Assembly: GCA_964543265.1 (NCBI GenBank)
Contig: CAZIWN010000001.1
Location: 104,577 to 168,576, forward strand
Length of the DNA: 64,000 nt
Direction of reading: 5' to 3'
From: an uncultured Candidatus Saccharibacteria bacterium
GTDB taxonomy: Bacteria > Patescibacteriota > Minisyncoccia > UBA6257 > 1-14-0-10-40-38
The notes below the pieces were generated by a model, which was not told the DNA's origin, did no database searches, and saw only the letters and a list, made by a program, of their open reading frames with translations. Below, piece by piece: positions 6,484 to 64,000 of the stretch. The translations under genes were made by a program, and so were the position numbers. The first letter of the stretch is position 1, and the number at the start of each line of letters is the position of its first letter.

Positions 6484-6522
6484 TTTTAACCCCCTTAATC
6501 TAATGAACTAATTTTATTATAT

Positions 6523-6585
6523 AAATTAAAACCACCCACAGCAACCGTAGTCGCTGGGGTGGTTCTGCGTCAGATTGTCTGACGC
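6523..6585 (-). terminator. Two tandem hairpins downstream of the islet lipoprotein gene: GCGTCAGA/TCTGACGC, then CCACCC...GGGTGG followed by a T-tract on the minus strand.
   Basis: Perfect 8-bp and 6-bp stems. The minus-strand sequence continues as TTTTAATTT. Confidence 0.6.
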
Positions 6586-6878
6586 TAGTTCGTCGCGGAG
6601 ATGGTCTCCGCGAGGCGCTCGAGGCCATCGTTCAGCTTCTCGAGGCCGTCGATGATCTTCTCCATCTCGATCGTCTGCTCGCGCATCCGCTCGAGATCGG
6701 TGTCGTCGCTCTTGACGACGTTCGGCAGCATGCGGTCGCGCATCTCGTCGTAGGCCTCCACCTTCTTCGTCGGCACCTCCTCCTTGGCGGGGGAGACGCA
6801 GCCGACGGACAGGAGGCAGAAGAAGGCGGCGATCCAGAACCCGTAGTTGAACGCGAGCATGTTTCGAAGCAAACGCAT
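6585..6878 (-). CDS. Small secreted or lipoprotein-like protein of 97 aa, GC-rich codons.
   Basis: Signal peptide with a lipobox-like LLSVGC. SD site CAAGGGAAAGGGAAAG is upstream of the ATG, and a consensus promoter lies upstream on the minus strand. Confidence 0.55.
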   Translation of the reverse strand: MRLLRNMLAFNYGFWIAAFFCLLSVGCVSPAKEEVPTKKVEAYDEMRDRMLPNVVKSDDTDLERMREQTIEMEKIIDGLEKLNDGLERLAETISATN

Positions 6879-6987
6879 TTTCTTCTTTCCCTTTCCCTTG
6901 GAAAGCTATTCTCTCGCAAGAAGGCGCTCGCCCTCATCGCAAAAGAATGCTTATTTGTTAATGTTCAATCTAACCCTAACCTTTGTA

Positions 6988-7017
6988 ATTATAGCACAAT
7001 ATATTGATATTTGTCAA
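6988..7017 (-). promoter_or_regulatory. Near-perfect sigma70 promoter with extended -10 (TTGACA-18-TGcTATAAT), copy A of the repeated promoter module.
   Basis: Read on the minus strand: CTATTGACAAATATCAATATATTGTGCTATAAT. Confidence 0.7.
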
Positions 7018-7020
7018 TAG

Positions 7021-7074
7021 ATAAGAAAGCCAATAAAATAATAGCCCCGGGTGCGCATTTGCGCATTCCGGGGC
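7021..7074 (-). terminator. Terminator of the 123-aa islet gene: GCCCCGG...CCGGGGC stem with an inner GTGCGCA/TGCGCAT palindrome, followed by a T-rich tract on the minus strand.
   Basis: Read from the sequence. Confidence 0.6.
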
Positions 7075-7080
7075 AGTAGT

Positions 7081-7452
7081 TCAGCTCGAAGCGGTAGCGG
7101 TGGCGGGGAACATCTCGCGAAGTTCCGCGCGAATCTCCTGGGCGAACCTGGTCATCGCCAAGCGCCATTCATCTTCATCGGTATGGATCCTGAGCTTTTT
7201 GGGCCAATACTTCGGGTCGCGCTTGGCCTTGGCCATGTCTGCAAGGTAGACCATCGCATCGAATCCTGTCTTGGCGTTGTTGTCTCCCGGCTTCAGTTCG
7301 AAGTCGAACGACATCTCGCCAATCCCATCGAAATCGGGCGCGGTCACGAAAGCAACGAGCTCTTCGTAGCTTCCAAGACCAAGCCATCCTTCCGGCGCCT
7401 GCTTCTTGCCGGGAAGAAAATGAAGGTCGTCAAGAAAAACATTCCTTTCCAT
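7081..7452 (-). CDS. Hypothetical 123-aa protein, GC-rich codons, unknown function.
   Basis: Clean ORF with SD site AAGGGA upstream of the ATG. Its own promoter (TTGACA-17-TAAACT at 7503-7531, minus strand) and its own terminator flank it. Composition is unlike that of the flanking genes. Confidence 0.5.
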   Translation of the reverse strand: MERNVFLDDLHFLPGKKQAPEGWLGLGSYEELVAFVTAPDFDGIGEMSFDFELKPGDNNAKTGFDAMVYLADMAKAKRDPKYWPKKLRIHTDEDEWRLAMTRFAQEIRAELREMFPATATASS

Positions 7453-7574
7453 TTTTCCCTTGTCTCCGCTTGGGTTTTTCTTTCCCTTAGGTGCTGACGT
7501 ATAGTTTAGCCCAAAACACCCAATTTGTCAAAGTTATATTAATCTACTATCTTATGCTAAAATTACATAAATAA

Positions 7575-12053: not shown

Positions 12054-13205
12054 TTATTTAATCACTTTCGCCACAGTCTTCACAAGTCGTTTATCAAAAA
12101 TCTTTGGCACGATATTTTGCTCTGTTGGTTTCTTAATTAATTTAGCAATTTCTCTCGCGGCTTTAATTTTCATCTCATCAGTTATTTTATTGACTCTATT
12201 ATCTAAGGCGCCCCTAAATACTCCAGGGAACACTTGCGCATTATTAAGCTGATTTGGAAAATCGCTTCTTCCAGTTGCCACAATTCTCGCTCCGGCTTTA
12301 AGTGCCTCCTCTGGCATAATCTCTGGCACTGGGTTGGCCAAAGTAAAAACGATCGAATCTTTATTCATAGAAGCGATCATCTCTGGGGTAACCAAATTCG
12401 GCCCAGAAACGCCGATAAATACATCGGCACCCATAAATGCGTCACTTGCCGTGCCAGTTTTATTATCTCTATTAGTAATAGAAGCTAATTCTGCTTTTTC
12501 TGCGGTTATGTCAGCGCGGTTTTTATGAATTATTCCAGAACGATCCAAAACTAAAATATTTTTAACTCCCGCCAAAAGCAAAATCTTAGTTATTGCCGTT
12601 CCAGCTGCTCCGGCTCCACTAATAACAACTCTCACATTTTCAATTTTCTTTTTTACCACCTTCAAAGCATTTAATAATCCTGCTAAAACAATAATTGCCG
12701 TGCCGTGTTGATCATCGTGCATCACTGGAATTGATAATTCTTCTTTTAATCTCCTTTCAATTTCAAAACATCGCGGAGCAGAAATATCTTCCAAATTAAT
12801 TCCTCCAAAAGCAGGGGATATCGCTTTTATGGTTTTTATTATCTCTTCTGTGTCTTGGGTATTTAAAACAATCGGCACCGCATCGATATTGGCAAACTTT
12901 TTAAACAACAAACATTTCCCCTCCATCACTGGCAACGCTCCTTCTGGACCAATATTCCCTAAGCCTAAAACTGCCGAACCGTCGGAAATCACCGCCACGC
13001 TATTTCCTTTCATTGTATAGTCTCGTGTCTTTTCTTTATTTTTGGCCACAAACGAACTCACCGCTCCAACTCCAGGGGTATAAGCCAAGCTCAAATCTTC
13101 CATATTGCGAATCGGCACCTTGCTTTCAATTGCAAAAACTCCAGTATGTTTTAAATGTAGCGCCAAAGATTTTTTATTTATCTTTTCAAGATTTCTTTTT
13201 TTCAT
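12054..13205 (-). CDS. NAD(P)-dependent malic enzyme, short form.
   Basis: Motif LAYTPGVG...ISDGSAVLGLGNIGPEGALPVMEGK, plus a Rossmann fold GAGAAG. Confidence 0.9.
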   Translation of the reverse strand: MKKRNLEKINKKSLALHLKHTGVFAIESKVPIRNMEDLSLAYTPGVGAVSSFVAKNKEKTRDYTMKGNSVAVISDGSAVLGLGNIGPEGALPVMEGKCLLFKKFANIDAVPIVLNTQDTEEIIKTIKAISPAFGGINLEDISAPRCFEIERRLKEELSIPVMHDDQHGTAIIVLAGLLNALKVVKKKIENVRVVISGAGAAGTAITKILLLAGVKNILVLDRSGIIHKNRADITAEKAELASITNRDNKTGTASDAFMGADVFIGVSGPNLVTPEMIASMNKDSIVFTLANPVPEIMPEEALKAGARIVATGRSDFPNQLNNAQVFPGVFRGALDNRVNKITDEMKIKAAREIAKLIKKPTEQNIVPKIFDKRLVKTVAKVIK

Positions 13206-13303
13206 AAATTTTAGTAGTTACATTCTATCATCTTAATTAGATTCAAAACTAGGCTTAAAAGCGCATATTTTTTAATTTTTTAAAAATAATCTACAATAGG
13301 TAT

Positions 13304-13696
13304 ATGAATAAATTTTTTAAAGATATTGGTGCTATCTTAAGCGGATTTATAAGCGTTGTTATTTTATCTGTCGGGACAGATGCCTTATTAGAGAAATTAA
13401 ATATATTTCCATCAGCGAGTGAAGGATTATTTGTTACTTGGATGTTGGTTCTGGCTTTTATATATAGAAGCATTTACGCGATTGTTGGTGGATACGTGAC
13501 AGCCAAATTAACTTCAACTAACCCAATGCGCAATGTTAAGATACTCGGATTTCTAGGAATCATAGGAGGAGTCGCTGGCGTGGTGGCTGGTTGGAATTTA
13601 TCTGATCATTGGTATCCGATTGCGCTCGCCGTCACGGCGTTTCCACTAACTTGGTTTGGTGGTAAATTAAAAAAAGATCAGCAACAAGTAAATTAA
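13304..13696 (+). CDS. Small membrane protein.
   Basis: Four hydrophobic helices. Confidence 0.5.
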   Translation: MNKFFKDIGAILSGFISVVILSVGTDALLEKLNIFPSASEGLFVTWMLVLAFIYRSIYAIVGGYVTAKLTSTNPMRNVKILGFLGIIGGVAGVVAGWNLSDHWYPIALAVTAFPLTWFGGKLKKDQQQVN

Positions 13697-13698
13697 AA

Positions 13699-13728
13699 AA
13701 ATCGCCCCCAAAGGGGCATTTTTTTATA
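13699..13728 (+). terminator. Terminator GCCCC caaa GGGGC followed by a T-tract.
   Basis: Read from the sequence. Confidence 0.7.
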
Positions 13729-13797
13729 AATATTTTTTACTCAAAAGTTATTAACACTTTACTTGCATAAAGCACTTTATTCTGCTAAAGTTAATGT

Positions 13798-14115
13798 ATG
13801 ATTAATTGGAGCAGTAAAGAAATTGAAAAATTAGTTACAGCAATTCTTCTTTTAGAAACAGAAGAAGATGCCAAAACATTTTTAAGAGATTTAATGACAG
13901 AAAAGGAAATTAGAGAATTTTCAAAACGCTTACAAGTCGCAGAAATGCTTAGTAATAAAATCTCTTATTCAGTTATTGAAAAAGAAACAGGTTTAAGCTC
14001 AACCACAATTGCCAGAGTTGCCAAATGGCTAAACGGCAAAGAGGGTGGATATAAAAATATTTTAGATAAACTGCATCGCCATAGCGCCTTACAGGTCGGT
14101 AGAAGGTTGTCTTAA
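13798..14115 (+). CDS. TrpR-like YerC/YecD family DNA-binding protein.
   Basis: Motif ...EEDAKTFLRDLMTEKEIREFSKRLQVAEML.......IEKETGLSSTTIARV. Confidence 0.75.
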   Translation: MINWSSKEIEKLVTAILLLETEEDAKTFLRDLMTEKEIREFSKRLQVAEMLSNKISYSVIEKETGLSSTTIARVAKWLNGKEGGYKNILDKLHRHSALQVGRRLS

Positions 14116-14216
14116 TGTTGGATAAATCATTAAGCTAACCTTCTCCTGAGTTGGAGAAAAGGGTCTGCTGGTCACCCTAAAAGACTAGCAACGGTTCTTT
14201 GACAAGGGAGAGAGTC

Positions 14217-14417
14217 ATGAACAGTCACATGCACCCGCACGATCACGATCACGGCGTTCGCGCTTCCGACGATCGGCATCACGGTGTTCACGGCGACCAC
14301 AGTGATCACAGCGACAGTGGCCACAGGCACCACAGGGGTGCGCACGGTCACGATCACAAGGCGCACGGTCACCACCACGGGTCGGTCCACAAGCAGAAGA
14401 GGGGCGGCGCGCACTGA
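14217..14417 (+). CDS. Histidine-rich 66-aa peptide (about 38% His) with GC-rich codons; likely metal binding.
   Basis: SD site AAGGGAG lies 6 nt upstream of the ATG at 14217. The run is MNSHMHPHDHDHG...HGHDHKAHGHHHGSVH. A terminator follows. Confidence 0.55.
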   Translation: MNSHMHPHDHDHGVRASDDRHHGVHGDHSDHSDSGHRHHRGAHGHDHKAHGHHHGSVHKQKRGGAH

Positions 14418-14493
14418 TTTCGTATTCCGCGATTTGTCAGAGATGTCATCATGAAGTCTTTTCCAAGTCCGAAGTCCGGTATTCAATACGAAA

Positions 14494-14538
14494 AAGGAGT
14501 TGATCACGATACGTCGAGATCAACTCCTTTTAATTTTT
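14494..14538. terminator. Bidirectional terminator AAGGAGTTGATC...GATCAACTCCTT followed by a T-tract.
   Basis: 12-bp perfect stem. Confidence 0.8.
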
Positions 14539-14775
14539 AAATAAAGATATTTTATCAACTCTTTTTAGTTTTTTAATCGCTGCCTCTCTCTGTTTAGCTT
14601 CTCGTAAAGTTTCAAAAGTTTCGTGATATACAAGCTTAACCGGACGGCGTATCTTCGTGTAGTGCGCCCCAGATTTTAATTCATTATGTTCTCTCAATCT
14701 TTTTTCTAAGTTATTAGTTGATCCTACGTAAAGTGTTTTATCTGCGCATTCAAGAATATAGGTAAAATATGGCAT
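14530..14775 (-). CDS. Stand-alone GIY-YIG domain protein (YhbQ/UPF0213-like).
   Basis: Motif YFTYILECADKTLYVGSTNNLEKRLREHN. Confidence 0.85.
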   Translation of the reverse strand: MPYFTYILECADKTLYVGSTNNLEKRLREHNELKSGAHYTKIRRPVKLVYHETFETLREAKQREAAIKKLKRVDKISLFKN

Positions 14776-14781
14776 TGCGGC

Positions 14782-14851
14782 TGCGGGACCTGGGCTCGAA
14801 CCAGGATACCAGCTTTCAGAGAGCTGTGTCCTACCATTAGACGATCCCGCA
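14782..14851 (-). tRNA. tRNA-Gln (anticodon CUG) with a U1:A72 pair; CCA is not encoded.
   Basis: Cloverleaf folded by hand: acceptor TGCGGGA/TCCCGCA, U8, anticodon stem CAGCT/AGCTG with loop CTCTGAA, and T-arm CTGG TTCGAGC CCAG. Confidence 0.8.
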
Positions 14852-25407: not shown

Positions 25408-25414
25408 ATTTTAA

Positions 25415-25456
25415 GTGCCACCTCCAGCGCTTGCGCTAAATAGGTGGCACTTTTTC
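25415..25456. terminator. Terminator GTGCCACCT...AGGTGGCAC followed by TTTTT; also T-rich on the minus strand.
   Basis: 9-bp perfect stem. Confidence 0.8.
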
Positions 25457-25466
25457 TTCCCCGTCT

Positions 25467-25688
25467 TCAGTTCAGGACGGTGACGAATCTCCCGATTGGT
25501 GTGAAGACTTGTTCACCGTCGACGATCTCGAGTTGTCCGAGAACTTCGCCACATCCCGGTACGGGGCAAGAAACGTTTGAGTGTTTGCAGGACGGGGCAG
25601 CGACCTTGCACTGGCCATACCTTCCTTCCCACTTGCAAACGCACCTGATCTGCGTCTCCGCACCGCACTCCTTCTGACTCATCGTCAT
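25467..25688 (-). CDS. Cys-rich 73-aa protein with 8 Cys (CGAETQIRCVCKWEGRYGQCKVAAPSCKHSNVSCPVPGCG) and GC-rich codons.
   Basis: SD site AGGAGG lies 9 nt upstream of the ATG at 25688. It is wedged between a terminator and the rnpB promoter. Confidence 0.5.
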   Translation of the reverse strand: MTMSQKECGAETQIRCVCKWEGRYGQCKVAAPSCKHSNVSCPVPGCGEVLGQLEIVDGEQVFTPIGRFVTVLN

Positions 25689-25761
25689 TTCTTTCCGCCT
25701 CCTGAAGCTGGATTCGAAACTAGACATAATAATAACAATAATTAAGCCAAAAAGGCAAGAT

Positions 25762-26225: not shown

Positions 26226-26269
26226 GATTAACAGTTCTTCGGTTAAGGTCATTGGGAGGGAAGGCCTTG

Positions 26270-26458
26270 GTGGAATTCGGAAAGAGGCTTTGCTTCGCTC
26301 TGGTCTGGACTGTTTCCTGGGTTCTTCCGAAGGAATCTAGGGACGAGGAAGAAGAGGTGAGTGGTGTCTTGAAGCTTCTCCTCTTCGCCCTTGTCGGAGT
26401 TGGAACGGCCTTGGTTCTTCACTTCTATCGGATGAGGCAAAACTTCATCCAGATTTGA
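26270..26458 (+). CDS. Small two-TM membrane protein of 62 aa from the GTG start (68 aa if the TTG at 26252 is used), GC-rich.
   Basis: SD site GGGAGGGAAGG lies 5 nt upstream of the GTG. Two hydrophobic helices are separated by an acidic EEEE loop. A terminator follows. Confidence 0.45.
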   Translation: MEFGKRLCFALVWTVSWVLPKESRDEEEEVSGVLKLLLFALVGVGTALVLHFYRMRQNFIQI

Positions 26459-26477
26459 AAGAAGGCCAAGTGTCTCA

Positions 26478-26558
26478 AATGGCGTGCTGCCACCAAGTAG
26501 CGCGCCATTTTTTTTGTAAAAAAAGACCACCCATTACTCGCTCGCGAGCTAGGGTGGT
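26478..26558. terminator. Pair of convergent terminators sharing a central T8/A7 tract: ATGGCG...CGCCAT followed by T8 on the plus strand, and ACCACCC...GGGTGGT followed by a T-tract on the minus strand.
   Basis: Read from the sequence. Confidence 0.65.
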
Positions 26559-26570
26559 TTTCTGTCGCTG

Positions 26571-26789
26571 TTAACGAGGAGTAGTCGCTTCCCCGAACAG
26601 CATCGGTACTTCTATCAGATGCTTTTTATTGCATCCCTTCTTGCATTTCGGATGCGTCGAGCTCCCAAAATATGTATTGCCCTTTGGGATCTTACCACCG
26701 CACCCAGTGCAGGTACGATCCAAATGGGCAACATGATGTTCTGGAACCTCATCATCCTCTTCGTCGCTTCCGCCGTTGCCTCCACGCAT
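26571..26789 (-). CDS. Small zinc-ribbon protein of 72 aa from the ATG (CTGCGGKIPKGNTYFGSSTHPKCKKGC), acidic N-terminus.
   Basis: SD site GGGGAGGG lies upstream of the ATG. Its own promoter TTGAAA-17-TATAGT (26845-26873, minus strand) and its own terminator flank it. Confidence 0.5.
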   Translation of the reverse strand: MRGGNGGSDEEDDEVPEHHVAHLDRTCTGCGGKIPKGNTYFGSSTHPKCKKGCNKKHLIEVPMLFGEATTPR

Positions 26790-26876
26790 TGGGTTCGCCC
26801 TCCCCGTGAATGGATTGATGGTCAAGAAACGTGTACTGATATTTACTATAAAACATTCTTAAATAATTTTCAAAAT

Positions 26877-26920
26877 GAAAAGGCCCGGCTAGAACTATAC
26901 GTTCTATAACCGGACCTTTT
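26877..26920. terminator. Bidirectional terminator with a long imperfect stem GGCCCGGCTAGAAC tatac GTTCTATAACCGGACC, flanked by A4 and T4.
   Basis: Read from the sequence. Confidence 0.65.
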
Positions 26921-26946
26921 GCTCCGTCTTGCGGAGCCGTCGCCTT

Positions 26947-27153
26947 TCAGGCGGTGGCAACTGCGAGTTGCCGGCTCTCGGCGCGGAGCTCTGCGAGTTC
27001 TCCGCTCGAGAACAGATTGAGCAGTTCAGGCCACGTCGGCATCCTGCCGAGCTTCCGAGCCTTCCGCGCGATGATCTGCCGCATCGTGGGCACCGCGACC
27101 TCTTCTGAGCACTGATCGCAACCATTCGCGCAGCACTTGGATTCGCACGCCAT
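26947..27153 (-). CDS. Cys-rich 68-aa protein (N-terminal CESKCCANGCDQC, basic/helical C-terminus).
   Basis: A GGGGGG tract lies 7 nt upstream of the ATG. Copy B of the consensus promoter sits about 90 nt upstream. Confidence 0.5.
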   Translation of the reverse strand: MACESKCCANGCDQCSEEVAVPTMRQIIARKARKLGRMPTWPELLNLFSSGELAELRAESRQLAVATA

Positions 27154-27246
27154 CGTAGTTCCCCCCGAATGCCATTCTGATTTCGCCCTAAGGCTCGTCA
27201 GAGGACTTGTGAATGACTAGGGCCAATCCCTTATCATCACTCCTAT

Positions 27247-27276
27247 ATTATATCATACAATATATTAATTTGTCAA
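27247..27276 (-). promoter_or_regulatory. Near-perfect sigma70 promoter TTGACA-18-TGaTATAAT, copy B of the repeated promoter module.
   Basis: Read on the minus strand: CTATTGACAAATTAATATATTGTATGATATAAT. Confidence 0.7.
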
Positions 27277-34502: not shown

Positions 34503-34532
34503 TTGACAATATATCTATTTAGGGAATAAAAT
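34503..34532 (+). promoter_or_regulatory. Consensus-like promoter TTGACA-18-TAAAAT at the start of a GC-rich islet.
   Basis: Read from the sequence. Confidence 0.6.
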
Positions 34533-34590
34533 TAAATTCCACGCGCTTTAAGAGGAAGCGCGCAGAAATCACTTGTCGAAGGGAGATTGA

Positions 34591-34821
34591 ATGGGTGCGA
34601 AGAGGGGATCTACGGTGAGGCAGGGATCTGTTGGCGGCGCCTCTTCTTCTACTGTCTTGAACCGACTGGCTCAACCCGACTGGAAGTTCAAGGGGGTTGA
34701 ACCGATTCGCGGGGCGATGAAGGGGTGCAGGTCTTGCACCTTCGATGGCGTGCCTCACGGTCAGTTCAGGGTGGGTGGTCCGAGGGGCGTCGTCTCCAGG
34801 TGTCCTTGCACGAACAGGTGA
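34591..34821 (+). CDS. Small 76-aa ORF (CRSC...CPC) in a GC-rich islet; coding status uncertain.
   Basis: SD site GAAGGGAG lies 6 nt upstream of the ATG. The Gly/Arg/Ser/Val-rich composition is typical of a random GC-rich translation. A 5' UTR hairpin CGCGCTT/AAGCGCG precedes it and a strong terminator follows. Confidence 0.35.
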   Translation: MGAKRGSTVRQGSVGGASSSTVLNRLAQPDWKFKGVEPIRGAMKGCRSCTFDGVPHGQFRVGGPRGVVSRCPCTNR

Positions 34822-34825
34822 TTTT

Positions 34826-34866
34826 TCAGCCCGGCTTTCCGAAAAGGAAGCCGGGCTGTATAATTT
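34826..34866 (+). terminator. Terminator CAGCCCGGCTTTCC gaaaa GGAAGCCGGGCTG followed by TATAATTTAT.
   Basis: 13-bp near-perfect stem. Confidence 0.8.
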
Positions 34867-34872
34867 ATATAA

Positions 34873-35256
34873 ATGAAAAAAGTTATGGTTTTCGGCGACT
34901 TCGATGGCCTTCATGAGGGTCATAGATTTTTTCTACGAAGCGCCAGAAAGTATGGAGATTATTTAATAGTGGCAGTTTCTCAAGATCATATTATCAAGCA
35001 TTTAAAAGGAGAATATCCAATAAAGAATTTTGCCGAACGCTTTGAGCACTTAGAAAATTATGACGATGTAAATCAAGTTGTCATTGGTGATCCGGAAAAC
35101 TCCCCAATTAATTTGATAAAAAAATATAATCCCGATATAGTTGTCTTATCTAAAAATCAAGAATTTTTACAAAACGAGATAGAAAGAAATTACGAAAATT
35201 TTTCTAAAAAAATTGAATTAAAGATAGTAGACGTTGGAGAAATAAAAATTTATTAA
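34873..35256 (+). CDS. Cytidylyltransferase-like (HxGH) nucleotidyltransferase domain protein (FMN adenylyltransferase-like).
   Basis: Motif VFGDFDGLHEGHRFFL. Confidence 0.55.
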   Translation: MKKVMVFGDFDGLHEGHRFFLRSARKYGDYLIVAVSQDHIIKHLKGEYPIKNFAERFEHLENYDDVNQVVIGDPENSPINLIKKYNPDIVVLSKNQEFLQNEIERNYENFSKKIELKIVDVGEIKIY

Positions 35257-45379: not shown

Positions 45380-45638
45380 CCTTATAAGCGTCGGTAGGGC
45401 TGACTTTGTCTTAGCTCTGATAAGTGGGACACTTTGTGCCCACAACGAAATTCGGCGAATAGAGAGGCGTGGTCGCAAGATCACAATAGCTCCTCTCGTC
45501 AGAGTACGAGCAAATCAGCCCTACCGACACCATTTCAAAAACAAGGCACACGGTGCTGCTGGTACCCCCCCGTACCAGACACCGCTGAGTCACTGGTCCG
45601 ACGCTACCCGCAAGGGCGCGCTCGGACCTATTTTTTTA
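45380..45638 (+). ncRNA. Candidate structured ncRNA of about 260 nt. A 14-bp long-range helix (45390-45403 pairing with 45515-45528) encloses 111 nt. Then a GGTAC-C6-GTACC hairpin and a terminator GTCCGA...TCGGAC followed by T7.
   Basis: No credible ORF. Helices read directly from the sequence. Possible promoter TTGTAT-18-TACTAT (45344-45373). Confidence 0.4.
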
Positions 45639-45649
45639 CAATCTTAATT

Positions 45650-45676
45650 AAAACCCCGCCAATCGGCGGGGTTTTC
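45650..45676. terminator. Bidirectional terminator AAAACCCCGCC aatc GGCGGGGTTTT; it also terminates typA.
   Basis: Read from the sequence. Confidence 0.8.
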
Positions 45677-47479
45677 TTATTCAGTTCTCTTTCTTAGCGC
45701 ATTCTTTAAAATTCTTTTTCTTAATCTTATAGATGTTGGAGTGGCTTCTACCAATTCATCATCTCCAATATACTCCAAGGCCTCTTCAAGGGTTAATTTT
45801 TTAGCTGGCACCAAATCATCAGTTACAGCATCTGTTTTTGCTCTAAAGTTAGTCAACTGTTTAGCTTTACAAACATTTACCACCAAATCTTCTGATTTTG
45901 CATTTTGTCCTACAACTTGTCCTTCATAAACATCTTCTGCTGGAGCCACAAACATAACTCCTCTTTCTTGAGAGCTTAATAGAGCATAGGCGGTAGATTT
46001 TCCGGCCTCATGTGCAACCAAGGATCCATGTGGGCTAGTTTCTAATCCCTGTATTTTTGGGAAATATCCAGCGCTTAAACTATTTATAATTCCCATACCT
46101 TTAGTTTCTATAAGTAATTGATTTCTAAATCCAATAAGGCCCCTGGTAGGAATAAAGAAGTGAAACGCCACAGTTCCATTATCAACTGCCATATTTTTCA
46201 TTTCTCCCTTACGTTCACTTATCTTTTGAATAACCATTCCCGAATATTTTTCTGGTGCTTCAATCCAAACATCTTCGAATGGCTCCATGGTTACTCCGTT
46301 TTCTTCATTGAAAATAACTTCTGGTCTCGAAACTTGAAGTTCGTATCCTTCGCGTCTCATTTTTTCAATTAAAATTGAAAGGTGAAGTTCTCCTCTTCCG
46401 CTTACAATAAATTCGTCTGCAGATTTACCCTGCACAACCTGTAGCGCAACATCGCTATCTAATTCTTTCTCTAATCTTTCTTTTAGGTTTCTTGAAGTGC
46501 AATATTCTCCCTCTCTGCCAGCAAAAGGGGACGTATTTACTCCAAAAATCATTTTAACCGTAGGTTTTTCTATAACGATTGGCTTCATTCCTTTTGGATT
46601 TTCAGCTTCAGAAATAGTGTCTCCAATCATAATATTATCCACTCCAGCCACAGCTCCGATATCTCCAGCCACAAGCTCTGGAACTTCAACTTTTCCAAGT
46701 CCCGAAAAGACCATTAAGTTTGTAAGCTTAACTTTAGAAATTTCTCCATTTCTATGAACTACAGAAATCATCTGCCCAGATTTCATCTTTCCAGCAGTCA
46801 CTCTTCCAATTCCAATTTTTCCCTTAAAGTTGTCATAAGCTAAGGAAACAACCATCATTTGTAGTGTTTCATTTATTTCTGCTTTAGGTGTTGGGATGTG
46901 TTTAATAATCTCTTCAATTAATGGTTTAACTCCAGTCATATTCTCAAGTTCTGGGGCCATTCCAGTCTTTCCCAATCTTCCAGAAGCATAAACGATAGGG
47001 AAATTAAGCTGATCGTTATTTGCTCCTAATTCTATAAATAATTCTATAGTTTTTTCTAAAACATAATTAATTCTTGCATTGGGTTTATCAATTTTATTTA
47101 TAACTACAATAATCTTATGTCCCATCGCCAATGCTTTCTTTAAAACGAATCTTGTTTGAGGCATTGGGCCTTCTTGAGCATCGATAAGTAAAAGCGAACC
47201 ATCAGCCATATTTAAAACGCGCTCAACTTCTCCTCCGAAGTCTGCGTGTCCAGGGGTGTCTATGATATTAATTTTATATTCACCATAACGAACAGAAGCA
47301 TTTTTAGAGAATATAGTAATTCCTCTTTCTCTTTCAATTTCGTTAAAGTCCATTATCATCGATCCACCCTCTCCAAGCCTTCCAAGATCAGTTTCGGATT
47401 GTCTCAAAAGCGCATCAACTAAAGTTGATTTTCCGTGGTCGACGTGAGCAATAATTGCGATATTTCTTAAGTTATTCAT
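45677..47479 (-). CDS. typA: Translational GTPase BipA/TypA.
   Basis: G1 motif AIIAHVDHGKSTLVD and an EF-G-like domain organisation. Confidence 0.95.
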   Translation of the reverse strand: MNNLRNIAIIAHVDHGKSTLVDALLRQSETDLGRLGEGGSMIMDFNEIERERGITIFSKNASVRYGEYKINIIDTPGHADFGGEVERVLNMADGSLLLIDAQEGPMPQTRFVLKKALAMGHKIIVVINKIDKPNARINYVLEKTIELFIELGANNDQLNFPIVYASGRLGKTGMAPELENMTGVKPLIEEIIKHIPTPKAEINETLQMMVVSLAYDNFKGKIGIGRVTAGKMKSGQMISVVHRNGEISKVKLTNLMVFSGLGKVEVPELVAGDIGAVAGVDNIMIGDTISEAENPKGMKPIVIEKPTVKMIFGVNTSPFAGREGEYCTSRNLKERLEKELDSDVALQVVQGKSADEFIVSGRGELHLSILIEKMRREGYELQVSRPEVIFNEENGVTMEPFEDVWIEAPEKYSGMVIQKISERKGEMKNMAVDNGTVAFHFFIPTRGLIGFRNQLLIETKGMGIINSLSAGYFPKIQGLETSPHGSLVAHEAGKSTAYALLSSQERGVMFVAPAEDVYEGQVVGQNAKSEDLVVNVCKAKQLTNFRAKTDAVTDDLVPAKKLTLEEALEYIGDDELVEATPTSIRLRKRILKNALRKRTE

Positions 47480-47554: not shown

Positions 47555-47599
47555 AATAAAACCCTTAATTTTGAGGGGGTAAAAGGGAGGGATTGATAG

Positions 47600-47791
47600 A
47601 TGAGCTCTTCTGGTTCTGCGACGGCTGCACCAATCATCAGGGGACGTTGCTTAGAGCTTCGCTCCAACGCCCTTTCTCGTCGGGCTAGAAACGTGAATCA
47701 TCGCGCATTGAGCGATCACGCTCGCACCTGCGCCAGCTGCAGGGACCACCTTGCATCGCTCGCCGCCAAGCAATCGAGCTCGGCGTCTTGA
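47600..47791 (+). CDS. Small 63-aa ORF with an HxxxCxxC (ZAS-like) motif (HARTCASC); coding status uncertain.
   Basis: SD site AAGGGAGGG lies 9 nt upstream of the ATG. The Arg/Ser/Ala-rich composition could be a random GC-rich translation. A terminator follows. Confidence 0.35.
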   Translation: MSSSGSATAAPIIRGRCLELRSNALSRRARNVNHRALSDHARTCASCRDHLASLAAKQSSSAS

Positions 47792-47796
47792 GCCAA

Positions 47797-47838
47797 ATAC
47801 TCCGATAGGCCACGGGTCTGTCGGAGTATTTTATTTTC
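47797..47838 (+). terminator. Terminator ATACTCCGA...TCGGAGTAT followed by TTTATTTT.
   Basis: Read from the sequence. Confidence 0.75.
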
Positions 47839-48940
47839 CTAAGCTTTCAATAATCGCAATCTCAAGCGGTATAAAAGAAAAAGGAGAATACCTCATTTCA
47901 GAATAAGCTCTAATTAACGATTTTAATAGATTAATTAAAAACTTTTCATCAGCGCTAATGGAAAGATTTTTTAATTTATTCAGTTCGGTAGTCGTAAATT
48001 CTTCCACAAATATTTTTTCAAAATCAGGATTTGCTTTCAGGGCTAAAATTTTTCTCAAAAAATGTATCAATTCTTTAGCTGAATCAACAATACTTATTCC
48101 GTTGTTATAAATCGCATTTACCGCCTCGATAGATTCTTTAGTTTTTTTATTTAATATCAACTCTGCTAAATTAGAAATCTTTTTAAATCCGGCTTTTCCT
48201 AAAATAGATTCAACCTTGTCGGCGGTAATTTTTTCTTCCAAACTTCCCATTTGGTCAAGTATAGATTCGGCGTCTCTAAATCCTCCTTCTGCGGTTTCTG
48301 CAATGAGTTCTAATGCCTCATCTTCTATGTCGATTTTTTCAGTTTTAGAGATGTCTTTTAATTTTTTAAATAATTTCTGAATAGGAATTTTCCTAAAATT
48401 AAATTTTTGGACACGCGACAAGATCGTTCCAGGAACTTTTTCATATTCCGTCGTAGCTAAAATAAATACAGCGTGAGCTGGTGGCTCTTCTAATGTCTTT
48501 AATAGCGCATTAAAAGCTTCTTTAGTTAACTGATGAACTTCGTCTATAATAAAAACCTTATATTTTGAAGATGTGGGGGATAGTTTAATAGATTCTTTTA
48601 AATCTCTAATTTCATCTATGCCCCTATTTGAAGCCGCATCCATTTCCACGACATCTAATGATTTTCCAGAATCGACATCTATACATTTAAGGCATTCATT
48701 GCAAGGCTCTCCTTTGGCGGCAAATTTTTTATCACTTTGGCGCGTTTCGCAATTTAATATTTTAGCCAAAATTCTAGCAACCGTCGTTTTTCCTGTTCCT
48801 CGACTGCCATAAAAAAGATAGGCATGCGAAATTCTGTCTTGAATTGCCGCGTTTTTTAATGTTTCAGTAATATGGTCTTCACCTAAAACATCTTCTAATT
48901 TTTTAGGTCTATATTTTCTATATAAAGCTCCTCCTTTCAC
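47831..48940 (-). CDS. dnaX: DNA polymerase III gamma/tau subunit (short form).
   Basis: Motifs GSRGTGKTT and a zinc module C..C..C. Confidence 0.9.
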   Translation of the reverse strand: MKGGALYRKYRPKKLEDVLGEDHITETLKNAAIQDRISHAYLFYGSRGTGKTTVARILAKILNCETRQSDKKFAAKGEPCNECLKCIDVDSGKSLDVVEMDAASNRGIDEIRDLKESIKLSPTSSKYKVFIIDEVHQLTKEAFNALLKTLEEPPAHAVFILATTEYEKVPGTILSRVQKFNFRKIPIQKLFKKLKDISKTEKIDIEDEALELIAETAEGGFRDAESILDQMGSLEEKITADKVESILGKAGFKKISNLAELILNKKTKESIEAVNAIYNNGISIVDSAKELIHFLRKILALKANPDFEKIFVEEFTTTELNKLKNLSISADEKFLINLLKSLIRAYSEMRYSPFSFIPLEIAIIESLGK

Positions 48941-62521: not shown

Positions 62522-63220
62522 TCAGTGATTCCAGTTTGTAGCGACTTCGCTACCAAACTGGTTTGCCAGACAATTCCTGAAGCGTTCGTCTTCCTCCTTT
62601 TCCCTCTTCAGGATGTCTCCAATTCCCTGCTGGTTCTCTTCGAGCTTCTCGAAGCTCATTCCGCAGAAGGCGCTTCTCGCCAATTCTTCGCAGTTGCGAA
62701 GCTTGGCAAAGCCGACGACGAGATCATTCAGCTGGGACGGCGACAAATCGTGGGGGTTGATCTCAGGCAAGGTCTCGAATAGATTCATCGCCATCTTTTG
62801 GAGATGATCGAGATCCATCTTGCCTTCTGGGTCCTGCAAGTAATTCCAGGATTGATGATCAACCAAGCTCTTCTTATGGAGCTTGGTAAGTTCGTGCTTG
62901 AGAAAATCGTTTTCCTTCTTCAGGGCTTCGATTTCCTCGTGAGCGCTTGTGAGCTCTTGGGTGAGCTCGAGGATGTTGCTCTGGCTCTCGCCAGTTTCGA
63001 TCTGAGGCTCGATTGCGCTCCTCTCGGCAACGATCTCCGTTTCCGGAGCCGTCGGCGCAAGTGTCACAGCCTGGTAGGCTTCGATCTTGGTAGGGTCATC
63101 TCCAACGAAGTTTTGTTGAGGGTGACAACCATAATCGACGCCGTGATTGTTGTTTCCTGAAATTGCGAACATGGCAACGCAGAAAACAACAAGCGCAATC
63201 AATCCGACAATTCGCTTCAT
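62522..63220 (-). CDS. Secreted coiled-coil protein of 232 aa with GC-rich codons.
   Basis: Signal or TM anchor MKRIVGLIALVVFCVAMFAISG, heptad-rich middle and SD site AAAGGAG upstream. Second gene of a two-gene minus-strand operon. Confidence 0.55.
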   Translation of the reverse strand: MKRIVGLIALVVFCVAMFAISGNNNHGVDYGCHPQQNFVGDDPTKIEAYQAVTLAPTAPETEIVAERSAIEPQIETGESQSNILELTQELTSAHEEIEALKKENDFLKHELTKLHKKSLVDHQSWNYLQDPEGKMDLDHLQKMAMNLFETLPEINPHDLSPSQLNDLVVGFAKLRNCEELARSAFCGMSFEKLEENQQGIGDILKREKEEDERFRNCLANQFGSEVATNWNH

Positions 63221-63249
63221 AGCTGACAGCTCCTTTGTCTTTCGAGTGA

Positions 63250-63295
63250 TCCCGGAAGGATCTCTTTCACTACTTAAGCCGAGATCCTTCCGGGA
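63250..63295 (-). promoter_or_regulatory. Perfect 15-bp intercistronic hairpin TCCCGGAAGGATCTC...GAGATCCTTCCGGGA with no U-tract.
   Basis: Sits between two co-oriented genes; possible processing, stability or attenuation element. Confidence 0.45.
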
Positions 63296-63311
63296 ATCTT
63301 CTCGGCTGCCG

Positions 63312-63851
63312 TCAGTTGTGGATCTTGTTGTTCGAGCCCTGGTAGTTTTCGACGTTGGCGTCGCTCCTGCCGTTCAAGTCAACGTCGTTGCCGTTGTTCC
63401 CGCCATCGGGACCAGTGAGCAACCCACCACCTTCGAAGTCGTGATCGTTGTTGTCGCAGTTCTTCTCGTTGACGCCGCCACCGTTCTTGATGTCGATGTC
63501 ATTCCCGTCGCAATCGTCCAGCTTGATCTTGCCGCCATCGGCATCGATCTCGTCGCCGTTCAGGCCTTCACCGCGGGCCAGTACGCCCTTCTTGATGGTG
63601 ATCTTGGCCTTCACGTAGTCGCCGTGATTCCAGATCTCTTCGACGACGACGTTGTCCGCGCTGTCTGGGCTGTTGGTGACCTTTCCTTCTCCGTCCGGAG
63701 CGGTCCAGGTCTGGCCAGGTCCCAGGCGAGTCGTGTGCGTTCCCGATGACGATCCGCTCGTCGCCGCGTTGGCGACCGACGTCCCTCCTCCGATCGCGAA
63801 GATCGCGACCAGAGCGAGTGCGAGCAAGGCGAAAATCTTCCTCGGATTCAT
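63312..63851 (-). CDS. Secreted Asp/Gly/Asn-rich protein with DxDxDG-like repeats; putative Ca2+-binding protein.
   Basis: Signal peptide MNPRKIFALLALALVAIFAIGGGTSVANA. Loops DADGGKIKLDD, DGNDIDIKNGG and DNNDHDFEGGG. SD site AGGAG upstream. Confidence 0.55.
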   Translation of the reverse strand: MNPRKIFALLALALVAIFAIGGGTSVANAATSGSSSGTHTTRLGPGQTWTAPDGEGKVTNSPDSADNVVVEEIWNHGDYVKAKITIKKGVLARGEGLNGDEIDADGGKIKLDDCDGNDIDIKNGGGVNEKNCDNNDHDFEGGGLLTGPDGGNNGNDVDLNGRSDANVENYQGSNNKIHN

Positions 63852-64000
63852 GCGTTCACTCCTGTGTTTTGGCCCGTTTTCGGTTCTTAAGCGAAATCGG
63901 GCTTAAGCCTACCTCCCCTTCTTTCGTCGCTGTTTTGTCAAGGTGCTACGAATCTAGGGCTACACACCCCAGTTTCATACTTAACATTACTCCTTTAACA

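Follow-up and report, generated by a model that had tools for sequence, protein, structure and literature searches.

Directly downstream of a gene for a histidine repressor homologue (hisR/yerC), an uncultured Candidatus Saccharibacteria bacterium carries a small open reading frame (ORF) for a 66-residue peptide of which one third is histidine. The DNA examined, called the window throughout, is a 64,000-nucleotide stretch of contig CAZIWN010000001.1 (assembly GCA_964543265.1, positions 104,577 to 168,576), and all coordinates are those of the window unless a locus number precedes them. An earlier note, made from the letters of the window alone, had singled out the peptide as a putative metal chaperone or storage peptide and had suggested that a palindrome in front of it could be an operator. 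The histidine-regulatory context of the ORF is a real finding, and the operator and chaperone readings are unsupported. Since the ORF sits in the payload position of a HisR operon, there is more support for a link to histidine than for a role as a nickel/zinc chaperone. The best explanation, put forward tentatively, is a small gene of recent origin under HisR control, whose product, a disordered His/Asp/Gly peptide, would probably serve as a divalent-metal buffer and/or a histidine pool.

The upstream gene encodes a TrpR-family protein (PF01371, E 4.6e-22) that scores 73.9 bits against the TIGR02531 yecD_yerC model, where the cutoff is 42.2, and it therefore belongs to the YerC/YecD family. 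Published work identifies YerC as HisR, which represses histidine genes and binds the operator cacTTTAnnnnnnTAAAgtg with L-histidine as co-repressor (PMC9413887). The PDB structures 3KOR, 3FRW and 3G1C (3G1C, E 4.9e-11; the Eubacterium eligens HisR used in the HisR study, PMC9413887) align to residues 6-93 of the window protein alone. The C-terminal tail, which ends in KLHRHSALQVGRRLS and includes His codons at 14074-14076 and 14080-14082, lies outside the domain shared with these solved Firmicutes proteins.

Two predicted HisR operators, O1 and O2, stand in tandem before hisR (Table 1). O1 departs from the published consensus (PMC9413887) at two positions and has the -35 hexamer TTGCAT (13763-13768) in its spacer; O2 departs at one position and overlaps the -10 hexamer TAAAGT (13786-13791), giving a promoter of the form TTGCAT-17-TAAAGT. 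These are the only sites with two or fewer mismatches in the 64 kb, where 0.46 would be expected, for a motif that was derived from groups other than Patescibacteria. Among 43 metagenomic loci that encode HisR relatives, 31 were scanned for operators, and most of these carry the arrangement CTTGACT-N5-ACTTTAnnnnnnTAAAGTG-N5-ATG; about 25 relatives share the promoter-operator design of the window. In loci L038-L077 the operator, about 25 nucleotides before the hisR ATG, overlaps a TTGACT-N17-TAAAGT promoter that ends some 5-7 nucleotides before the ATG, so that the hisR mRNA would be nearly leaderless. Many relatives have a second, perfect operator before a gene for an AstE/AspA-family deacylase, about 1.9-2.2 kb downstream (for example at L046:4939 and L052:5170), and the HisR regulon of Patescibacteria seems from its predicted sites to comprise a GNAT acetyltransferase (or a 295-residue protein) and the deacylase, not histidine biosynthesis. 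At one locus (L064:2101-2952, plus strand) a ZIP-family transporter gene (PF02535) lies directly upstream of hisR, and the transporter has a His/Glu-rich C-terminal tail (HHHAVEGEHGHEHGHEEEHEEETAHEEEHHE).

In the window, hisR and the ORF are on the same strand and 101 nucleotides apart, with no promoter-like site between them, and the two tandem predicted operators (13755-13792) would place the putative transcription unit of the ORF in the HisR regulon. The arrangement resembles the HisR regulon described for Firmicutes, Actinobacteria and Synergistetes (PMC9413887): a TrpR-family YerC repressor, a 20-bp palindromic operator lying over the hisR promoter (and thus autoregulation), and regulated genes in one operon with hisR. 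The known regulons hold genes of histidine biosynthesis or the histidine transporters hisXYZ and yuiF (PMC9413887), whereas in Patescibacteria, which that study did not cover, the payload is the GNAT, 295-residue or AstE/AspA gene, and in this genome an orphan His-rich ORF. A further difference is that Patescibacteria have a putative RNA attenuator fused to the end of hisR.

This attenuator-like leader follows hisR in more than 30 Patescibacteria loci (within L037-L076; for example L052:3286-3430). A covariance model, R1, built from 21 loci with the window excluded, matches window positions 14086-14221 over its full length (1-145) with 61.8 bits (E 4.7e-10); it finds hisR loci only, and none of 32 unrelated Patescibacteria loci. 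No Rfam family matches the leader, and a literature search found no paper describing a HisR attenuator in Patescibacteria. An alignment of 25 loci and the window, running from the 3' end of hisR through the intergenic DNA behind it, shows a constant order. Segment A is formed by the last five hisR codons (GGAGAGGGTTG) and is followed by an AT-rich loop with the stop codon; then come segment B (CTAACCCCCTCC), segment C (GGAGGGGGTT), a TTTT tract, a third hairpin (GTTTGCC...GGCAAAC) and finally GTTCTTTaAAAAGGAG-N5-8-ATG, the start of the next gene. The C-termini of the relatives' HisR proteins read KLHH(H)NSIQSRRGLS, in which a run of two or three His codons precedes the stop by 10-12 codons.

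Segment B can pair either with A or with C. The B:C hairpin is predicted by RNAalifold across the loci, and the mutually exclusive A:B helix has changes on both sides in 6 of its 11 pairs across 26 loci. For B:C and A:B, respectively, 89% and 86% of alignment cells are paired, as against 36-61% in slid controls; 12-13 pairs are changed on both sides, and none of 500 shuffles reaches the observed values. Columns 30, 96 and 114 of the alignment covary three ways, and in hairpin 3 all seven pairs have changed on both sides. At L052, a typical locus, the competing helices are balanced (A:B -19.9 and B:C -20.9 kcal/mol), B:C being followed by UUUU. From this design logic and covariation we infer that the leader is a His-codon attenuator for which the tail of hisR itself serves as leader peptide. 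Ribosomes stalled at the HH(H) codons would leave A free, A:B would form and transcription would read through; ribosomes reaching the stop codon would cover A, and B:C with its U tract would terminate transcription, in an L052-type leader at a predicted point after GGAGGGGGUUUU. Like the leader peptide and attenuator of the histidine operon (hisL; His_leader, RF00514) and the His-leader attenuators of Firmicutes (PMC9413887), the hisR tail and leader combine tandem His codons, exclusive helices and a U tract. The Patescibacteria element differs in having the C-terminal tail of the repressor (..KLHHHNSIQSRRGLS) as its leader peptide and in lacking a match in Rfam.

Tandem control codons, exclusive helices and U tract are all found in the relatives; the window lacks the terminator/U-tract part alone. 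Here a strong A:B (-21.6 kcal/mol, z -5.0) stands beside a weak B:C (-10.5 kcal/mol, z -1.5) that has lost its U tract, so read-through from hisR into the ORF is likely to be constitutive with respect to attenuation, with the HisR operators still acting. The palindrome TTCTCC (14141-14146)-N6-GGAGAA (14153-14158), which is present just as the earlier note described it, therefore has a different meaning from the operator suggested there: it aligns with the terminator hairpin of the leader (CCCCCTCC-N6-GGAGGGGG-TTTT), weakened in this genome, and the predicted HisR operators are those before hisR. The window start context, GAGAGAGTCATG, resembles GAAGTCATGCA of the loci that have the 295-residue payload protein. 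Similarity to the relatives ends at the ATG, and no remnant of the GNAT, 295-residue or AstE/AspA genes is found in the window. The Shine-Dalgarno (SD) sequence AAGGGAG, which the earlier note listed with islet 3, and the ATG of the ORF are indeed there, but homology shows both to be start signals inherited from the payload gene of the operon and not the islet's own.

Table 1. Features of the hisR and His-rich ORF region (positions in the window)
Feature	Position	Strand	Remarks
Predicted HisR operator O1	13755-13774	+	CACTTTACTTGCATAAAGCA
Predicted HisR operator O2	13773-13792	+	CACTTTATTCTGCTAAAGTT; 6 nt 5' of hisR ATG
hisR/yerC, TrpR-family histidine repressor homologue	13798-14115	+	105 residues
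Conserved hisR 3' leader, attenuator-like	14086-14221	+	ends on the ORF ATG; 130 nt from last hisR codons to ATG
Segment A	14098-14109	+	GGTAGAAGGTTG; last hisR codons; 5' strand of antiterminator-like helix A:B
Segment B	14135-14146	+	CTAACCTTCTCC; partner of A or of C; includes TTCTCC arm
Segment C	14153-14163	+	GGAGAAAAGGG; 3' arm of degenerate terminator; includes GGAGAA arm; no U tract after it
Hairpin 3	14166-14190	+	UGCUGGUC-ACCCUAAAA-GACUAGCA; within the minimum free energy structure of the window
Shine-Dalgarno sequence AAGGGAG	14204-14210	+	6 nt 5' of ORF ATG; its orthologue in the leader is the conserved GTTCTTTaAAAAGGAG
His-rich ORF	14217-14417	+	66 residues; ATG 14217, TGA 14415-14417; GC content at third codon positions (GC3) 0.75
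Antisense ORF	14172-14507	-	111 residues, Val/Thr-rich; longest ORF of the islet
3' UTR segment	14430-14470	+	predicted pairing with SD/AUG region 14191-14224
Bidirectional intrinsic terminator	14492-14531	both	common to His-rich ORF (+) and convergent GIY-YIG gene (-)

The translation of the ORF is identical to that given in the earlier note. It contains 22 His (33%), 8 Asp and 10 Gly, and His plus Asp make up 30 of the 66 residues, that is 45% and not the roughly 38% first quoted. Cys, Glu and aromatic residues are absent, and the aliphatic residues are three Val and four Ala alone. A longer form of the ORF could begin at a TTG codon at 14199. The GC-rich body, noticed before and confirmed here, belongs to islet 3 (about 14131-14501), which peaks at 66% GC in a window of 35% GC overall and is one of about eight sharp GC-rich islets. 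Histidine is in clear excess: 22 codons are observed against 5.5 expected, and the maximum in 5000 shuffles is 16. The triplet phase is strict, with 21 of 21 CAC, 5 of 5 GAT and 3 of 3 GAC triplets in the frame of the ORF, and only one of its 67 codons has A at the third position. Repeats inside the ORF are spaced by 9, 9, 15, 21, 30, 75 and 105 nucleotides, all multiples of three, and no frameshift separates the diverged copies. This phase structure indicates that the sequence is coding, or was so very recently, or has grown by duplication of triplet units, in this phase or directly antisense to it.

Codon choice sets the ORF apart from the genes of the host. The ORF ends in TGA and has CAC and CAT in a ratio of 21:1 and AAG and AAA in a ratio of 3:0. 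In host genes these two ratios are 38:58 and 132:475, and 46 of 54 genes end in TAA. The codon usage and TGA stop of the ORF agree with those of the other ORFs in GC-rich islets of the window. Recoding of UGA (genetic code 25) was considered and rejected, as code 11 leaves the long host ORFs unbroken and TGA serves as a stop. A Logan contig from DRR736439 (2513 bp) is 100% identical to window positions 12322-14834, and a chimera peculiar to one assembly is unlikely since the same DNA occurs in a second public assembly.

The unit closes with an intrinsic terminator, which the earlier note had assigned to the ORF and described as a perfect 12-bp stem. A terminator is present, but its perfect outer stem measures 14 bp (AAAAGGAGTTGATC/GATCAACTCCTTTT), with 3 inner pairs, followed by TTTTAATTTTT, and it is not the ORF's alone: T runs flank it on both sides, it also serves the convergent GIY-YIG gene, and the stop codon of that gene (14530-14532) abuts it. 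Predicted energies are -22.6 kcal/mol on the plus strand (z -7.7) and -23.1 on the minus strand (z -6.4). The 3' arm (14519-14542) has an 88%-identical copy at 14554-14577, 35 nucleotides away and within the last GIY-YIG codons, which suggests a local duplication at the junction. Between ORF and terminator lies a 3' untranslated region (UTR) segment predicted to pair with the SD/AUG region. The duplex is predicted at -27.8 kcal/mol; shuffled sequences average -17.3 (standard deviation 3.1) and do as well in 0.3% of cases. A GAC substitution in the window leader (TTTGACAAGG as against the conserved TTTAAAAAGG) adds to the pairing, and the predicted probability that the AUG is unpaired is about 0.001 in the full-transcript ensemble.

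On the explanation favoured here, the ORF would be co-transcribed with hisR from the HisR-repressed promoter and translated from its inherited SD and ATG, with transcription ending at the bidirectional hairpin. Output would be tied to histidine twice, in transcription through HisR and L-histidine and in translation through the 22 His codons among 66. The product would be a Cys-free, disordered His/Asp/Gly peptide that most likely binds divalent transition metals (Ni, Zn, Co, Cu) reversibly, its HxH and HD clusters being the chelating groups. Its role would be that of a small metal buffer in the cytoplasm and, in second place, of a histidine pool open to release. Metal binding by a peptide of this kind is chemically likely, to judge from its residues. 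A gene call for the ORF is plausible, and a small gene on the plus strand, as envisaged in the earlier note, is consistent with the SD spacing, the ATG, the phase and the terminator, but the nickel/zinc-handling role then proposed for it is unsupported. In favour of a real gene, the foreign body joins the intact, conserved SD and ATG precisely and in phase, and two genes of islet 1 with like codon usage are demonstrably real. The richness in histidine was flagged before the link to HisR was known, so that their co-occurrence is an independent coincidence of themes.

Several observations weigh against this explanation. The length of the ORF is at the chance level: when the body is shuffled with its dinucleotides preserved, 54% of the resulting sequences contain no stop for 65 codons or more past the ATG (P = 0.54). 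The sequence is of low complexity and could have been generated by slippage of triplet units. Metal binding is deduced from composition only. The regulatory logic is odd, since scarcity of histidine is what relieves repression in HisR regulons, and it is then that a peptide with 33% His is hardest to make. Pairing with the 3' UTR is predicted to hide the SD and AUG. Homologues of the peptide, which the earlier note had proposed to seek among His-rich proteins, number zero in a word-indexed search of 5.8 billion clusters and in a phmmer search of 1.84 billion representatives, and nothing in viral contigs, PDB, Pfam, NCBIfam or PHROGs matches it. No gene caller has called the ORF, the Logan assembly of DRR736439 included. 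Metal-related genes, the presence of which nearby was to have been a check on the chaperone proposal, are also lacking: no transporter, urease, hydrogenase, carbon monoxide dehydrogenase (CODH) or HypB-like GTPase gene is found within about 7 kb.

Comparison with the nearest relative also weighs on this side. PilB, encoded 0.5 kb downstream, assigns the window to the Paceibacterota/Patescibacteria and has its closest species representative in locus L002 (Baikal-deep-G188), at 88% amino acid identity. L002 is syntenic on both sides, but it lacks the entire block 13251-14779, which comprises a 130-residue membrane ORF, hisR, the islet with the His-rich ORF, and the GIY-YIG gene. The counterpart (L002:9520-9825) is about 300 bp with a different small ORF beside tRNA-Gln(CTG), and two independent Logan assemblies break at this tRNA gene (about 14824-14834 in the window). 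The absence from L002 together with the assembly breaks at the tRNA shows the block to be accessory and at a variable site, and this site may be an insertion hot spot. Because the nearest relative lacks the block, there is no comparative evidence of purifying selection on the ORF. The contigs found through neighbouring genes, in a search for polymorphism, all end short of the islet. The DNA of the islet has no match in plasmids or phages, and among 82 fetched loci the identical Logan contig alone carries it; its four ORFs, taken from both strands, are not on record in a collection of 15 billion proteins.

In a different account, doubtful yet not far-fetched, the ORF is a non-functional by-product, or proto-gene: the payload of the hisR operon (in relatives the GNAT or 295-residue gene, with an AstE/AspA-type deacylase nearby) was lost and replaced by foreign, triplet-periodic DNA of low complexity, and the inherited SD and ATG merely happen to open onto a free frame. 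Besides the chance length and the want of homologues and gene calls, the decayed attenuator terminator, the payload genes gone without remnants, the position of the block at a variable site, bordered by tRNA-Gln and the gene for a GIY-YIG nuclease, where two assemblies break, and the poor physiological sense of a His-rich product under histidine limitation all fit such an origin. It accounts less well for a foreign body that begins exactly at the ancestral ATG and in phase, for 21 of 21 CAC triplets and repeats that keep the frame, for an SD, spacing and hairpin 3 that are intact, for the strong terminator that closes the unit, and for the fact that histidine, of all compositions, matches the adjoining histidine regulator. 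A rather improbable third reading makes the ORF an oversized leader acting in cis, where the transit of ribosomes, dependent on charged tRNA-His, alters the stability of the hisR-ORF mRNA, the SD/AUG pairing, or terminator read-through antisense to the GIY-YIG and tRNA-Gln genes, and the peptide itself is irrelevant. The operon seems already to use His codons of a coding tail as an attenuator sensor, CAC makes up 21 of the 22 His codons, the SD/AUG pairing beats 99.7% of shuffles, and published His attenuators have 3-7 tandem His codons (PMC9413887). The ORF, however, shares with hisL only the idea of translation sensitive to tRNA-His: at 66 codons it far exceeds any known leader and is ten times longer than leaders are, its His codons are dispersed with HHH as the longest run, and downstream of it there is no plus-strand gene to regulate, just convergent genes beyond a terminator that works in both directions. 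No sequence that could pair with this terminator as an antiterminator is evident, and there are no relatives in which covariation could be seen. Also quite unlikely is a histidine-status device of a histidine-auxotrophic episymbiont, in which the transcript would be made at low histidine and translation would resume as tRNA-His is recharged, the peptide being a histidine/metal "capacitor" or timer in recovery, or ribosome stalling itself being the signal. If true, this would be the first case of a His-rich product made by ribosomes that is controlled by a histidine repressor and encoded behind a repressor-tail attenuator, and one instance of a wider class of GC-rich, SD-led, TGA-terminated mini-genes whose high GC this AT-rich lineage keeps across species.

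Hpn and Hpn-2 of Helicobacter pylori are small His-rich nickel storage proteins, and the ORF product is like them a stand-alone cytoplasmic His-rich peptide of about 60 residues without a signal peptide, for which metal chelation is plausible. That it belongs with Hpn, or with the HypB/UreE/SlyD type of nickel/zinc storage-chaperone proteins that serve metalloenzyme maturation, is nevertheless very improbable, since it is composition alone that points there. The segments HPHDHDHG and HGHDHKAHGHHHG, with HxH, HD and HG clusters, do recall the Ni/Zn/Co-binding tails of HypB, UreE, SlyD and CooJ and the loops of ZIP, CDF and RcnA transporters, but those are appendages of folded domains (GTPase, peptidyl-prolyl isomerase, transporter), whereas the ORF product is free-standing and has no domain. 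It has 33% His against about 47% in Hpn, HHH as its longest run and thus no long poly-His stretch, no Cys pairs, and abundant Asp, Gly, Ser and Arg in place of the Glu and Gln of Hpn; the genes of a urease or hydrogenase context are missing, and the regulator over the ORF is a histidine repressor, not a nickel regulator. The likeness to Hpn or HypB drawn in the earlier note thus finds no family match in Pfam, NCBIfam, PHROGs or PDB, and BLASTP against Hpn gives E 9.1. Least credible is that the real product is the antisense ORF or transcript, or a small structured RNA. The antisense frame is the longest ORF of the islet and has the same GC-by-position pattern (G-rich first, T at second positions), but its GTG start lies inside the terminator stem, a GGAG is 15 nucleotides upstream and too far, its transcription would depend on read-through past the GIY-YIG terminator, and it has no homologues or family hits and crosses the conserved plus-strand leader; it was rejected on these grounds, and the case that the earlier note named as refuting, an antisense strand as the true transcript, is improbable. 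The structured-RNA reading was likewise rejected, because the folding z-scores of the islet are -2.1 (plus) and +0.55 (minus), compared with -8.4 for another islet of the window that does have a stable predicted fold, and the islet has no Rfam match at the gathering threshold, with noise alone at E values up to 10. A plus-strand protein is, as far as these predictions go, the best of the local alternatives.

If expressed, the His-rich ORF would join histidine sensing, by HisR and by His-codon attenuation, with His-rich metal-binding peptides, usually separate fields, and would do so in a bacterium of the Candidate Phyla Radiation (CPR), where regulation is almost unstudied. Whatever the fate of the ORF, the analysis exposes a conserved HisR autoregulatory promoter-operator in Patescibacteria (as predicted sites), an uncatalogued attenuator in which the C-terminal codons of the repressor appear to serve as the His leader peptide, and a likely HisR-controlled set of GNAT and AstE/AspA genes, all of which are testable handles on amino-acid sensing in ultrasmall symbionts. 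Should the ORF be merely a relic, it would offer a snapshot of proto-gene creation from an inherited SD and ATG and foreign low-complexity DNA.

The window as a whole contains two classes of genes. The 54 host genes have GC3 values of 0.17-0.40, TAA stops and essentially no SD sequences; the 11 ORFs of the islets have GC3 values of 0.52-0.95, TGA stops in 9 of 11 cases and purine-rich SD sequences. The body of the His-rich ORF shares the GC signature of this second class, and its SD is explained by the hisR leader. The islet class is found at 6511-7475, 25409-25738, 26240-27247, 34529-34881, 47568-47875 and 62558-63941, and several of its genes carry signal peptides, lipoboxes or Cys-rich motifs. 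A literature search found no paper on GC-rich islets in CPR bacteria.

Islet 1 encodes a lipoprotein and a PF20274 cREC_REC protein (window 6585-7452, minus strand; L002:1869-2730, minus strand; L082:3-820). Three related species keep it in the same place, between dnaJ and truB, with no more than 45-58% amino acid identity. The GC3 of the lipoprotein gene is 0.95, 0.81 and 0.85 in the three species, as against 0.24-0.33 in flanking core genes, and such high values despite the divergence indicate that GC-richness is maintained and is not the fading relic of a transfer. Recent horizontal transfer of the islet from a well-sampled high-GC donor is unsupported, the single database homologue of the islet-1 lipoprotein being in the third related CPR genome. 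Two islet genes are preceded by sigma-70 promoters that agree with the consensus at 12 of 12 positions (TTGACA-18-TATAAT, with extended TG; 6988-7017 and 27247-27276, both on the minus strand), and both promoters lie within a 39-nucleotide stretch that islets 1 and 5 share at 87% identity.

Islet 7 (45390-45640, plus strand) has no convincing ORF. It is predicted to form a multi-branched domain, with a 14-bp stem closing it, and is accompanied by two hairpins and a U7 terminator (about 45655-45690). With a minimum free energy of -114.3 kcal/mol, a z-score of -8.4 and no match in Rfam, it is a candidate for a novel structured RNA. The ORF of islet 8 (47600-47791, plus strand; 63 residues) contains an H-x3-C-x2-C motif (HARTCASC), which we take to be the zinc-binding motif typical of ZAS anti-sigma factors.

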